Below, piece by piece: positions 23,256 through 30,200 of a stretch of DNA of 33,935 nucleotides. The position numbers and the translations under genes were made by a program. The stretch is from the NCBI GenBank assembly GCA_964016885.1, contig CAXHJY010000025.1, positions 1 through 33,935 of the forward strand, written 5' to 3'. The stretch comes from Eledone cirrhosa. Taxonomy: Eukaryota. The notes beneath the pieces are model-generated. The model had not been told where the DNA came from. It saw only the letters and a program-made list of their open reading frames with translations, and ran no database searches. Each line of letters opens with the position of its first letter. The stretch's first letter is position 1.

Positions 23256-23464
23256 ATAGGAACCAGTAAGACCCCGACAGCTGAGCTCAAGCCGTTTCGA
23301 CGGCTAATTCTGGACTAAATGATTTAGTCCAGAGTTAGCCGTCGAAACGGCTTGAGCTCAGCTGTCGGGGTCTTACTGGTTCCTATTACCCACTCTACTA
23401 CCTCAAGTATTGAGTACTTTGGTGCGTTATGGTCCACCTGGTTCCTTACCACATTTCCTTCGTT
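23256..23464 (+). mobile_element. (TA)n-flanked insertion beginning with a 131-bp fold-back palindrome
   Basis: Arms 23256-23320 and 23322-23386, one mismatch, 1-nt centre. Confidence 0.85.
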
Positions 23465-23839
23465 ATATACATATATATATATATATACATATATATATAT
23501 ATATATATATATATATATATATATATATATATATATATATATATATATATATATACATATATATATATATATATATACATATATATATATATACATAAAT
23601 GTAAGTATGCATGTATACGTACATACATATATGTATACAGACGTACAGTAGCATGCACATATATATATATATATACATATATATATACATATGCATACAG
23701 GTACACATACATATATGCACGTATCAGTTTAGCAGCGCTAACGTCGCTTTGTTCGTTTGTAAACAAACTGAACAGCCTGAATTTATGCCATACGGTGTTA
23801 AGGCAACCACGTCACCTTTTTGTTCAACACTGACACAGG

Positions 23840-23884
23840 AACGATGTACTAGTTTCAAGCTTGTTAGCTATCATCAGCACCGTT
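23840..23884 (-). ncRNA. Type I hammerhead ribozyme, 466 family
   Basis: Reverse complement of the 25024-25068 motif. Confidence 0.88.
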
Positions 23885-24305
23885 TACCCATCTGCCAGAT
23901 AGTTGAACGTTCGAAAGTATATACTTTCCTTATGAAAATTAACGGCTGAACAGCCTAATTTGCATATTGAGTGAGTTAAATCGGTCAGGCATACCGAAAA
24001 CGATAAATTGAAACAAAATGAAAACGAAATTTCATTTCTCACTCTTAGTATGGCACTTACTTAAATGTAAGTATGCATGTATACGTACATACATATATGT
24101 ATACAGACGTACAGTAGCATGCACATATATATATATATATACATATATACATACATATGCATACAGGTACACATACATATATGCACGTATCAGTTTAGCG
24201 GCGCTAACGTCGCTTTGTTCGTTTGTAAACAAACTGAACAGCCTGAATTTATGCCATACGGTGTTAAGGCAACCACGTCACCTTTTTGTTCAACACTGAC
24301 ACAGG

Positions 24306-24350
24306 AACGATGTACTAGTTTCAAGCTTGTTAGCTATCATCAGCACCGTT
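24306..24350 (-). ncRNA. Type I hammerhead ribozyme, 466 family
   Basis: Reverse complement of the 25024-25068 motif. Confidence 0.88.
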
Positions 24351-25023
24351 TACCCATCTGCCAGATAGTTGAACGTTCGAAAGTATATACTTTCCTTATG
24401 AAAATTAACGGCTGAGCAGCCTAATTTGCATATTGAGTGAGTTAAATCGGTCAGGCATACCGAAAACGATAAATTGAAACAAAATGAAAACGAAATTTCA
24501 TTTCTCACTCTTAGTATGGCACTTACTTAAATGTAAGTATGCATGTATACGTACATACATATATGTATACAGACGTACAGTAGCATGCACATATATATAT
24601 ATATATACATATATATATACAAAAAGGTGACGTGGTTGCCTTAACACCGTATGGCATAAATTCAGGCTGTTCAGTTTGTTTACAAACGAACAAAGCGACG
24701 TTAGCGCCGCTAAACTGATACGTGCATATATGTATGTGTACCTGTATGCATATGTATATATATATGTATATATATATATATATGTGCATGCTACTGTACG
24801 TCTGTATACATATATGTATGTACGTATACATGCATACTTACATTTAAGTAAGTGCCATACTAAGAGTGAGAAATGAAATTTCGTTTTCATTTTGTTTCAA
24901 TTTATCGTTTTCGGTATGCCTGACCGATTTAACTCACTCAATATGCAAATTAGGCTGCTCAGCCGTTAATTTTCATAAGGAAAGTATATACTTTCGAACG
25001 TTCAACTATCTGGCAGATGGGTA

Positions 25024-25068
25024 AACGGTGCTGATGATAGCTAACAAGCTTGAAACTAGTACATCGTT
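25024..25068 (+). ncRNA. Type I hammerhead ribozyme, 466 family
   Basis: AACGGUG-CUGAUGA-U AGCU AACA AGCU U-GAAA-CUAG-UA/CAUCGUU. Stem I extends via CUGGCA/UGUCAG and GUUCAAC/GUUGAAC. Confidence 0.9.
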
Positions 25069-26000: not shown

Positions 26001-26290
26001 CCTGTGTCAGTGTTGAACAAAAAGGTGACGTGGTTGCCTTAACACCGTATGGCATAAATTCAGGCTGTTCAGTTTGTTTACAAACGAACAAAGCGACGTT
26101 AGCGCCGCTAAACTGATACGTGCATATATGTATGTGTACCTGTATGCATATGTATATATATATATATATGTGCATGCTACTGTACGTCTGTATACATATA
26201 TGTATGTACGTATACATGCATACTTACATTTAAGTAAGTGCCATACTAAGAGTGAGAAATGAAATTTCGTTTTCATTTTGTTTCAATTTA

Positions 26291-27108
26291 TATATACATA
26301 CATATATATATATATACATATATATATATATACATATATATATACATATATATATATATATACATATATATATATATATATATACATATATATATACATA
26401 AATATATATACATATATATATATACATATATATATATATATACATATATATATACATAAATATATATATACATATACATATATATATATATACATATATA
26501 TATATATACATATATATATATATACATATATATATATATACATATACATATATATACATATATATACGTATATATATACATATATATATACATATATATA
26601 TATACATATATATATACATATATATATATACATATATATATATACATATATATATATATACATATATATATATATATATATATATACATATATATACATA
26701 TACATATATATATATATATATATACATATACATATATATATATATATATATATATATATATATACATATATATATATATATATACATATATATATATATA
26801 TACATATATATATATATATACATATATATATATATATATACATATATATATATATATATATACATATATATATATATATATATATATACATATATATATA
26901 TACATATATATATATATACATATATACATATATATATATATACATATATACATATATATATACATATATACATATATATATATATACATATACATATATA
27001 TATATATATATATATATATACATATATATATATATATATATATATATACATATATACATATATATACATATATATATATATACATATATATATATATATA
27101 CATATATA
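26291..27108. repeat. (TA)n/(CATATA)n microsatellite separating the two arrays
   Basis: Directly visible. Confidence 0.97.
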
Positions 27109-27238
27109 CATATGTGAATATAGACATAGAATATTCGAAAATATTCTGTATGTTTATAATAAACATTTTGAAGACCTAATCGCTATAGAATAGAATACGT
27201 CACGTATTACAATTAGATTCTCGATAAAAGCAAGGGAA

Positions 27239-27281
27239 GTAATCTACGCGTTTCATTCTCGTTAGAAATCATCAGGACTAC
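27239..27281 (-). ncRNA. Type I hammerhead ribozyme, 310 family (second minus copy at 27549-27591)
   Basis: Reverse complement of the 27922-27964 motif. Confidence 0.88.
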
Positions 27282-27921
27282 ATATCCAGTGCTTTTATCG
27301 AGAATGACACAGCTAGAGACTTATAGAATACTTAGCTGTGTACAGGAACTGGTTTGAAAGAGCGGTTGCCGGTCCGGCAGAAATTAGAAATTGGAATAAA
27401 TGCTCTGAAATAGCGATATATATGTGAATATAGACATAGAATATTCGAAAATATTCTGTATGTTTATAATAAACATTTTGAAGACCTAATCGCTATAGAA
27501 TAGAATACGTCACGTATTACAATTAGATTCTCGATAAAAGCAAGGGAAGTAATCTACGCGTTTCATTCTCGTTAGAAATCATCAGGACTACATATCCAGT
27601 GCTTTTATCGAGAATGACACAGCTAGAGACTTATAGAATACTTAGCTGTGTACAGGAACTGGTTTGAAAGAGCGGTTGCCGGTCCGGCAGAAATTAGAAA
27701 TTGGAATAAATGCTCTGAAATAGCGATATATATGTGAATATAGACATAGAATATTCGAAAATTCTATGTCTATATTCACATATATATCGCTATTTCAGAG
27801 CATTTATTCCAATTTCTAATTTCTGCCGGACCGGCAACCGCTCTTTCAAACCAGTTCCTGTACACAGCTAAGTATTCTATAAGTCTCTAGCTGTGTCATT
27901 CTCGATAAAAGCACTGGATAT

Positions 27922-27964
27922 GTAGTCCTGATGATTTCTAACGAGAATGAAACGCGTAGATTAC
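27922..27964 (+). ncRNA. Type I hammerhead ribozyme, 310 family (further copies start at 28232, 28541, 28852, 29160, 29470, 29782)
   Basis: GUAGUC-CUGAUGA-U UUCU AACG AGAA U-GAAA-CGCG-UA/GAUUAC. 16-bp perfect distal stem at 27898-27913 / 27971-27986. Confidence 0.9.
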
Positions 27965-30200
27965 TTCCCTTGCTTTTATCGAGAATCTAATTGTAATACG
28001 TGACGTATTCTATTCTATAGCGATTAGGTCTTCAAAATGTTTATTATAAACATACAGAATATTTTCGAATATTCTATGTCTATATTCACATATATATCGC
28101 TATTTCAGAGCATTTATTCCAATTTCTAATTTCTGCCGGACCGGCAACCGCTCTTTCAAACCAGTTCCTGTACACAGCTAAGTATTCTATAAGTCTCTAG
28201 CTGTGTCATTCTAGATAAAAGCACTGGATATGTAGTCCTGATGATTTCTAACGAGAATGAAACGCGTAGATTACTTCCCTTGCTTTTATCGAGAATCTAA
28301 TTGTAATACGTGACGTATTCTATTCTATAGCGATTAGGTCTTCAAAATGTTTATTATAAACATACAGAATATTTTCGAATATTCTATGTCTATATTCACA
28401 TATATATCGCTATTTCAGAGCATTTATTCCAATTTCTAATTTCTGCCGGACCGGCAACCGCTCTTTCAAACCAGTTCTGTACACAGCTAAGTATTCTATA
28501 AGTCTCTAGCTGTGTCATTCTCGATAAAAGCACTGGATATGTAGTCCTGATGATTTCTAACGAGAATGAAACGCGTAGATTACTTCCCTTGCTTTTATCG
28601 AGAATCTAATTGTAATACGTGACGTATTCTATTCTATAGCGATTAGGTCTTCAAAATGTTTATTATAAACATACAGAATATTTTCGAATATTCTATGTCT
28701 ATATTCACATATATATCGCTATTTCAGAGCATTTATTCCAATTTCTAATTTCTGCCGGACCGGCAACCGCTCTTTCAAACCAGTTCCTGTACACAGCTAA
28801 GTATTCTATAAGTCTCTAGCTGTGTCATTCTCGATAAAAGCACTGGAATATGTAGTCCTGATGATTTCTAACGAGAATGAAACGCGTAGATTACTTCCCT
28901 TGCTTTTATCGAGAATCTAATTGTAATACGTGACGTATTCTATTCTATAGCGATTAGGTCTTCAAAATGTTTATTATAAACATACAGAATATTTCGAATA
29001 TTCTATGTCTATATTCACATATATATCGCTATTTCAGAGCATTTATTCCAATTTCTAATTTCTGCCGGTCCGGCAACCGCTCTTTCAAACCAGTTCCTGT
29101 ACACAGCTAAGTATTCTATAAGTCTCTAGCTGTGTCATTCTCGATAAAGCACTGGATATGTAGTCCTGATGATTTCTAACGAGAATGAAACGCGTAGATT
29201 ACTTCCCTTGCTTTTATCGAGAATCTAATTGTAATACGTGACGTATTCTATTCTATAGCGATTAGGTCTTCAAAATGTTTATTATAAACATACAGAATAT
29301 TTTCGAATATTCTATGTCTATATTCACATATATATCGCTATTTCAGAGCATTTATTCCAATTTCTAATTTCTGCCGGACCGGCAACCGCTCTTTCAAACC
29401 AGTTCCTGTACACAGCTAAGTATTCTATAAGTCTCTAGCTGTGTCATTCTCGATAAAAGCACTGGATATGTAGTCCTGATGATTTCTAACGAGAATGAAA
29501 CGCGTAGATTACTTCCCTTGCTTTTATCGAGAATCTAATTGTAATACGTGACGTATTCTATTCTATAGCGATTAGGTCTTCAAAATGTTTATTATAAACA
29601 TACAGAATATTTTCGAATATTCTATGTCTATATTCACATATATATCGCTATTTCAGAGCATTTTATTCCAATTTCTAATTTCTGCCGGACCGGCAAACCG
29701 CTCTTTCAAACCAGTTCCTGTACACAGCTAAGTATTCTATAAGTCTCTAGCTGTGTCATTCTCGATAAAAGCACTGGATATGTAGTCCTGATGATTTCTA
29801 ACGAGAATGAAACGCGTAGATTACTTCCCTTGCTTTTATCGAGAATCTAATTGTAATACGTGACGTATTCTATTCTATAGCGATTAGGTCTTCAAAATGT
29901 TTATTATAAACATACAGAATATTTTCGAATATTCTATGTCTATATTCACATATATATCGCTATTTCAGAGCATTTATTCCAATTTCTAATATATACATAT
30001 ATATACATATATACATATATATACATATATACATATATATACATATATACATATATATATATATATATACATATATATATATATACATATATACATATAT
30101 ATATATATATATACATATATATATATATACATATATATATATATATACATATATATATATATACATATATACATATATATACATATATATACATATATAC

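Follow-up and report, generated by a model that had tools for sequence, protein, structure and literature searches.

Penelope-like elements (PLEs) most frequently occur in a head-to-head arrangement (PMC3846280), and an inverted, 5'-truncated copy with a 30-40-bp tail at one insertion end is typical of them (PMC8557442). How these tandem and inverted structures form is stated as open in the latter source, in which the tails are ascribed to endonuclease resolution. The purified PLE of an anole cuts AT-rich DNA, extends both strands and is modelled as a dimer; in vitro, its reverse transcriptase (RT) has two start sites, adjacent and internal, by which the tail is defined (PMC11167929). The non-LTR retrozymes of animals, which bear a hammerhead ribozyme (HHR) in each non-coding unit, are proposed, on the grounds of co-occurrence and homology, to derive from the pseudo-long terminal repeats (pLTRs) of PLEs (bioRxiv 10.64898/2026.07.22.740005), and the enzyme that moves them is stated as open (PMC7229834). 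Here we describe a window of 33,935 nt, the whole stretch of DNA analysed (Eledone cirrhosa, assembly GCA_964016885.1, contig CAXHJY010000025.1, positions 1 to 33,935), which holds two arrays of 466-bp and 310-bp units that are, judging from their sequence, non-LTR retrozymes made of tandem type I HHR units inserted in (TA)n. We propose, with a probability of roughly 55%, that priming on both target strands by a PLE-type enzyme, at two fixed sites designated S1 and S2, explains these arrays.

Both arrays open with about two units whose HHRs lie on the minus strand and continue with plus-strand units (2.2 then 3.6 in the 466-bp array, 2.1 then 7.2 in the 310-bp array), and form large palindromes, as the sequence-only reading that preceded this work had described. 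In the 466-bp array, arms of 1026 nt with 3 mismatches (23596-24621 and 24753-25778) enclose a spacer of 131 nt (24622-24752), which is part of the long arm; in the 310-bp array, arms of 643 nt with 1 mismatch (27110-27752 and 27761-28403) enclose the 8-nt spacer ATTCGAAA (27753-27760), which is part of the inverted arm. The owner of the spacer therefore differs between the two insertions. The junctions carry microhomologies of 3 nt (ACA, 24619-24621) and 2 nt (AT, 27761-27762). With +1 set at the base directly after the HHR cut, the inverted arm of the 310-bp array extends to unit position 103, and the long arm no further than 113. This inversion had been placed exactly within the hairpin of the unit; the junction is indeed inside the 8-bp hairpin, but 2 nt of the hairpin are missing, and the CGAA loop on the top strand belongs to the inverted arm.

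A third family shows the 65-bp fold-back at 23256 that had been reported, its arms (23256-23320 and 23322-23386) matching at 64 of 65 positions around a 1-nt centre at 23321. This fold-back is not the only one of its family: both outer ends of 23256-23465 recur in a diverged copy (21486-21612) whose junction is different, with ~9 mismatches in 111 aligned nt, and its right arm begins at most 10 nt from S1. Co-variation between the arms of this older copy was not used, the alignment being ambiguous, and private differences between arms are not diagnostic. An interpretation of the third family as the hairpin of a miniature inverted-repeat transposable element or a Helentron is possible but not supported. 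The motif scan found no hammerhead in either copy, so that the polarity of this family is undefined; an HHR may have lain upstream of the truncation. The common polarity claimed for the independent insertions holds for the two HHR-bearing arrays, both head-to-head. As statistical evidence it was abandoned, since there are two informative cases of a two-state character and head-to-head is the PLE default; moreover, minus-then-plus reads alike on either strand, which makes the agreement of two HHR-defined arrays unsurprising.

All six outer ends of the three insertions adjoin TA tracts, inside which a target-site duplication is unreadable. S1 and S2 are the outer ends of the two arms of the 466-bp array in unit coordinates (Table 1), and the sequence between them forms the one-sided tail. 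The three copies of the 466 family proper all end at S2 or a few bases from it (26291, 2702 and 21937), the direct ends of the 310 family fall at 172-174 in two of two copies, and the right end of the third family is common to both of its copies, as is the left end. At S1, the left end of the 466-bp array (251) and that of W (~250), an old relative of this family (score 63 against at most 39 in 300 shuffles), stand in one alignment column; the probability that an end falls at most 4 nt from S1, calculated post hoc, is 3 of 112 TA/AT-compatible positions (0.027), or 5/249 under a looser definition. W is likewise head-to-head, and here it is the long arm that ends at S1 and the short one that ends at S2, opposite to the 466-bp array; the two ends are consequently interchangeable. 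Both in W and in the older copy of the third family, the S2 arm coincides almost exactly with the tail. The tails measure 59 nt in the 466-bp array, ~45 nt in W, ~80 nt in the third family and 37 nt in the 310-bp array, the last in agreement with the published 30-40 bp of PLEs (PMC8557442; PMC3846280).

In the scheme that we propose, a Penelope-like RT/GIY-YIG endonuclease, plausibly one of the Hydra type, which targets TA, would copy the retrozyme RNAs into (TA)n. This enzyme would nick both target strands and extend their 3' ends, with synthesis beginning within the RNA at S1 and S2, the fixed neighbouring sites that bracket the tail. Two antisense cDNAs would grow inward from both flanks along a tandem or circular RNA, each halting at a variable point, and be joined via 2-3 nt of microhomology, in the 310-bp array within the unit's own hairpin. 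The product would be a head-to-head palindrome with the tail at one end and a spacer from either arm; tail-only arms and cross-family pairs would also follow from such a two-primer reaction, as would the observed geometry. The scheme resembles the twin priming of LINE-1, in which priming by the second target strand at an internal place on the RNA gives a 5' inversion that is joined by microhomology. In LINE-1, complementarity determines the internal site, and the inverted segment does not duplicate another one, whereas the sites here look fixed and the inversion becomes a palindrome because its templates are tandem. We infer that the mover of these RNAs is this PLE group and that the inversions were made by two-strand priming. 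It is a more tentative proposition, to which we give somewhat less than even odds, that Penelope-type integration is altogether a symmetric two-primer reaction able to use two different RNAs, with inverted pLTRs, tails and cross-family head-to-head chimeras as its one-step products.

The sequence-only reading had attributed the inversions to snap-back priming. In the form that includes trimming, target-primed cDNA would fold on itself or on a neighbouring unit, and the endonuclease or TA microhomology would set the far end, in line with the crediting of tails to endonuclease resolution (PMC8557442). The 466-bp junction fits this account, its spacer lying in the long arm beside the ACA microhomology as a 131-nt loop, and so does the near-identity of the arms (3/1026, 1/643 and 1/65 positions differ). 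The 310-bp junction also lies in an 8-bp hairpin, but its spacer is in the wrong arm: the loop orientation does not suit a short snap-back of the long arm, which would give TTCG on the top strand, and the cDNA of the short arm is unable to template 7.2 units. The account is rescued there only by a ~300-nt loop to the neighbouring unit, which tandem units would permit. Inverted-arm ends at fixed sites common to older copies are not predicted, and in the old third-family copy, as in the pair formed by a 466-like monomer and an unrelated element (Z), neither arm templates the other without a second event. Furthermore, two RT start sites account for tails in vitro (PMC11167929). Snap-back thus suits one junction and is, overall, an unlikely source of these structures. 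Self-priming on an antisense RNA template, with integration of the hairpin intermediate, is the published account of head-to-head repeats with palindromic junctions in rotifer Penelopes (PMC3846280) and would suit the near-perfect palindromic centre of the third family; it predicts neither two fixed outer ends nor a 131-nt spacer, and the later in vitro work describes target-primed extension on sense RNA (PMC11167929), so that we give it very little credence.

Older insertions bear on the same question. The 466-like monomer and Z meet head-to-head at ~3157 and the 3' ends of both face TA. The scores of Z against 466-like sequence (25 and 33) are below the top shuffled scores of 32-42, and this pair may therefore join two unrelated families. 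Against the arm at 31870, Z has a score of 42, which is weak, 1 of 200 shuffles being higher. The pair at 21706-21937 is ambiguous as a cross-family junction. A dense cluster of truncated older copies of the third family, a pLTR arm and the 466 and 310 families occupies 21486-22790, in the order of the young elements at 23256-32035; a hairpin within it, at 22553-22647, was rejected as an inversion and corresponds to the extended stem of the old 310-family HHR. Post-insertion DNA events, i.e. replication fold-back or template switching at hairpins with rejoining in TA, might have inverted part of ordinary tandem arrays: the units contain hairpins, the 310-bp junction falls in one, TA tracts ease re-entry, and the same overall layout would result. 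Such events would be expected to yield tail-to-tail pairs too and no ending at S1, they leave the PLE arm at 31870 unexplained, and the 466-bp arm crosses ~90 nt of internal TA-rich sequence twice without rejoining there; we consider them highly improbable as the origin of the arrays.

It could also be objected that the palindromes are artefacts of the assembly or library, from fold-back long reads or amplification chimeras. Amplification and missed adaptors do yield palindromic reads (PMC6218980), and the assembly is noisy nearby, all six single-base indels of the 310-bp array lying to the right of 28403 (P ~0.03 if uniform). However, the mirrors do not extend past the elements, whose two ends are unlike, the unique flanks are not mirrored (scores 21 and 18 against shuffle maxima of 33 and 34), old copies with diverged arms keep the layout (W, 39/44), and all three junctions fall in the indel-free part, which makes an artefact very unlikely. 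More generally, 28400-31869 holds single-base indels and a very noisy TA tract, which suggests a consensus quality decreasing towards the right end.

The assignment of the arrays to retrozymes is based on type I hammerhead motifs, of which our scan found 2 minus and 3 plus in the 466-bp array and 2 minus and 7 plus in the 310-bp array. Every complete unit carries one, the copies are intact (5/5 and 9/9), and no motif of comparable quality appeared in any of 30 shuffled windows. Both arrays have a stem I of 6-7 bp, CTGATGA, a 4-bp stem II closed by T-T, GAAA and a GUA cut, and helix III is short and self-complementary (ACGCGT or ACTAGT). This is like the dimer-type layout of metazoan HHRs (helix I ~6 bp, helix II 4 bp, short palindromic helix III; PMC4209133), and the 310-bp HHR is predicted to co-fold as a dimer through helix III. 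The predicted fold of the 310-bp circle has a value of -67.8 against -49.3 +/- 5.4 kcal/mol in 30 shuffles, and the 466-bp value is inflated by the TA tract. The arrays have a GC content of 0.32-0.36 and only microsatellite-driven frames of ~110-140 aa; no open reading frame (ORF) for RT and GIY-YIG was found in them or in the third family, and the arrays are accordingly non-autonomous. They resemble metazoan non-LTR retrozymes in their non-coding units of a few hundred bp and low GC (PMC7229834; bioRxiv 10.64898/2026.07.22.740005), with one type I HHR per unit, a short palindromic helix III and PLEs in the same genome; 466 bp is just over the 150-450 bp range of PMC7229834 and within the 51-972 bp of the preprint, where 8 of 9 predicted Xenopus retrozymes gave no cleavage in vitro. 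Two old relatives, at 14980-15025 (-) and 22580-22623 (+), have HHR cores with a compensatory U3-A8 pair, a natural covariation reported in PMC3088659, which suggests from the sequence that the ribozyme core was under selection. Further pLTR-type HHR motifs of other families also occur in the window, each with its 3' side facing a TA-rich tract. A degenerate HHR pattern searched in bacterial and archaeal genomes gave 2 loci, both without related sequence, which were taken as chance.

Several points weigh against two-strand priming, or against the identifications on which it builds. The events are few and come from one window; the recurrence of S1 consists of one comparison of the 466-bp array with W and one pair in the third family, and the S1 of the 310-bp array has no second example and falls within the ATATATAT tract, where it could have been set by plain microhomology. 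No inverted arm was found for the old 310-family monomer at 22525-22790, the one old copy of that family. The 2-nt and 3-nt microhomologies at the junctions are close to what chance would give (P 0.18 and 0.06). The tails of the 466-bp array, W and the third family are longer than the published 30-40 bp. Moreover, the 466-bp junction could have arisen from a right-primed cDNA snapping back over 131 nt, the older third-family copy may be a separate insertion or a local duplicate that then lost the top of its hairpin, and the cross-family pairs could be separate insertions. With the anole enzyme, the RT start site is alike on both strands (PMC11167929), so that a strict S1/S2 pairing is not established. 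Between the retrozymes and the local PLE arm, the HHR layout is the only link shown. As for the ribozymes, the T-T pair replaces the usual G10.1-C11.1 of the published layout (PMC4209133), and the predicted minimum-energy folds of the 466-bp HHR, as monomer or dimer, contain no hammerhead. Rfam gave no match in the window at the gathering score, and none of the 150 E-value matches listed, out of 275, was a hammerhead, so that the HHR call rests on our own motif scan; the matches listed, hairpin models of the microRNA type that fell on TA tracts and palindromes, were rejected. The T-T pair and the Rfam result lower the confidence in HHR activity and leave that in the family layout as it was.

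The Penelope link is supported by the inverted 5' copy, the one-sided tail, the TA target and a PLE remnant of like layout in the same window. Inverted pLTRs, which had been put forward as typical of Penelope insertions, are a published signature of these elements (PMC8557442; PMC3846280). By its sequence, 31870-33108 is a decayed Hydra-type PLE with a textbook inverted pLTR arm. A HMMER search with a 201-aa frame (32033-32635) gave 2170 relatives at E<=0.001. Of the 150 listed, 15 reach at least 600 aa, and the alignment of each of these 15 starts at 32036-32045; all 8 long relatives inspected have YRDD and the Cys linker, most of them extending into the GIY-YIG region (32692-33108). The RT core is absent from the remnant, the GIY-YIG Pfam match in the window is weak (E 0.057), RVT_1 was matched below the cut-off in 2 of 10 homologues, and word-indexed protein searches with the PLE fragment gave no match. 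Hydra PLEs carry CxCx5C, CxxC, CxH and DKT and insert in (TA)n (PMC8557442, section 11); the remnant has the first three motifs, with DKT in its top relative, and shares the TA flank and the HHR arm, but is broken and truncated, its clade being assigned by motifs and not by a tree. No match to the arm at 31870 was found elsewhere in the PLE within the window (score 38, lower than shuffles), and the partner of this arm may lie beyond the window end. An Asn/Ser/Thr-rich stretch in the PLE linker (32423-32635), unmatched in most homologues, resembles the N-rich inserts of rotifer Penelopes (PMC3846280). Within the window, no evidence was found that the local Hydra-type family moved the arrays. 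The arrays share with endonuclease-bearing PLEs (PMC8557442; PMC3846280; PMC2377424; PMC11167929) the head-to-head inverted 5'-truncated copy, the one-end tail, the AT or (TA)n target, an HHR in the repeat and the overlap of inverted and direct parts; they differ in being non-coding, in their multi-unit arms (0.65-1 kb), in tails of 45-80 nt in three families and in possible cross-family pairs.

Table 1. Coordinates of the retrozyme arrays, their relatives and neighbouring features in the window.
Feature	Position	Strand	Remarks
466-bp retrozyme, inverted arm	23596..24621	-	2.2 units; outer end at unit position 251 (S1)
466-bp retrozyme, long arm	24619..26291	+	3.6 units; outer end at unit position 310 (S2)
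466-bp retrozyme, tail	26233..26291	+	59 nt, S1 to S2; this end of insertion only; end positions 251 and 310
466-bp HHRs, inverted arm	23840-23884; 24306-24350	-	motif scan
466-bp HHRs, long arm	25024-25068; 25490-25534; 25956-26000	+	motif scan
310-bp retrozyme, inverted arm	27110..27762	-	2.1 units; outer end at unit position up to 135, within the unit's ATATATAT tract
310-bp retrozyme, long arm	27761..29990	+	7.2 units; 7 HHRs (27922 to 29824); outer end at unit position 172
310-bp retrozyme, tail	29954..29990	+	37 nt; this end of insertion only; end positions 135 and 172
310-bp HHRs, inverted arm	27239-27281; 27549-27591	-	motif scan
Third family, inverted arm	23256..23320	-	strand by analogy only; no HHR found
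Third family, direct arm	23322..23465	+	with ~80-nt one-sided extension ending in (TA)n; sequence comparison
Third family, older copy	21486..21612		~39-nt inverted arm joined to extension alone
W, long arm	14492..15036	-	old 466-family relative; ~1.5 units; U3-A8 HHR 14980-15025; outer end homologous to S1
W, short arm	15039..15087	+	tail alone (~S1 to S2), inverted; 39/44 identical to internal copy 14774-14817
Old 466-family monomer	2702..3157	-	outer end at S2; adjoins (TA)n
Z, unrelated HHR element	3158..3331	+	HHR 3226-3283; head-to-head with old 466 copy, no TA between
Minus HHR arm beside plus 466-family end	21706..21937		HHR 21742-21805; 466-family end 21848-21937, ending near S2; TA-like junction
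Old 310-family monomer	22525..22790	+	U3-A8 HHR 22580-22623; 3' end at unit position ~172-174
HHR motifs of other families	3226-3283; 15843-15901; 21742-21805; 22198-22267; ~16050-16100	+; +; -; -; -	motif scan; last by eye only
Octamer ATGCAAAT	3080; 14731; 23958; 24424; 24943; 25409; 25875; 6320	either	window scan
(TA)n-type target tract	22789..23258		left of third family; sequence scan
(TA)n-type tract	23464..23595		third family to 466-bp insertion; sequence scan
(TA)n-type tract	26292..27109		466-bp to 310-bp insertions; sequence scan
(TA)n-type tract	29991..30202		right of 310-bp insertion; sequence scan
Inverted HHR-bearing pLTR-like arm	31870..32035	-	HHR 31900-31970; adjoins (TA)n
PLE ORF remnant, Hydra-type	32036..33108	+	5'-truncated, frameshifted; RT thumb, CxCx5C linker, GIY-YIG region

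Other features of the window were recorded in passing. The octamer ATGCAAAT, on either strand, has 7 of its 8 window copies at one homologous place in units of the 466 clan and is kept even in W; it is possibly a promoter element of the small nuclear RNA type. A similar proposal has reportedly been made for satellite 2 of newts, which our literature search did not confirm. A frameshifted non-LTR retrotransposon (RVT_1, zf-RVT) lies in (ACAT)n repeats at 11893-13870 (+), with a restriction-like endonuclease motif seen by eye; its RT (12213-13127) has 666 relatives at ~50% identity in a protein search. Repeated modules at 3598-6070, which start with TCTATATATATAAAA and end with a short GC hairpin and CTAG, presumably belong to a non-autonomous Helitron. 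The window has the look of an invertebrate-type animal genome, and a 190-bp repeat in it may resemble repeats of octopuses. A SINE-like 190-bp repeat (SINE, short interspersed nuclear element) is present in three copies, 84-92% identical (7671-7865, 16839-17028 and 19691-19879); an inverted pair of a 190-bp element (83%) is found at 10732-10916 and 21959-22152, and a direct 274-bp duplication (97%) at 20643-20916 and 21170-21440.

The structure itself is real in the assembly and is expected PLE behaviour, which would not surprise a specialist; it brings a useful and testable correction of the mechanism, both ingredients of which are known. The main text of PMC11167929 does not tie both-strand extension to inverted copies, the word "inverted" occurring once, for a blocking group, and in the available text of PMC7229834 this word does not occur and head-to-head tailed insertions are not described. 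A literature search that lacked the older Penelope mechanism papers, and is therefore weak evidence of absence, found neither an account of head-to-head, tailed insertions of retrozymes nor any claim that PLE inversions are made by two-strand priming. Short non-coding arrays offer countable ends, spacer ownership and cross-family junctions, by which two-primer and snap-back models can be separated. It is plausible that read-through from either strand would form a hairpin of 0.65 or 1 kb, with which the HHRs in the duplex would compete; if transcribed, each such event would leave a perfect hairpin of 0.65-1 kb that could seed small RNAs against the family. If the symmetric two-primer reading is true, these loci would be direct, insertion-level evidence that the PLE machinery moves animal retrozymes.

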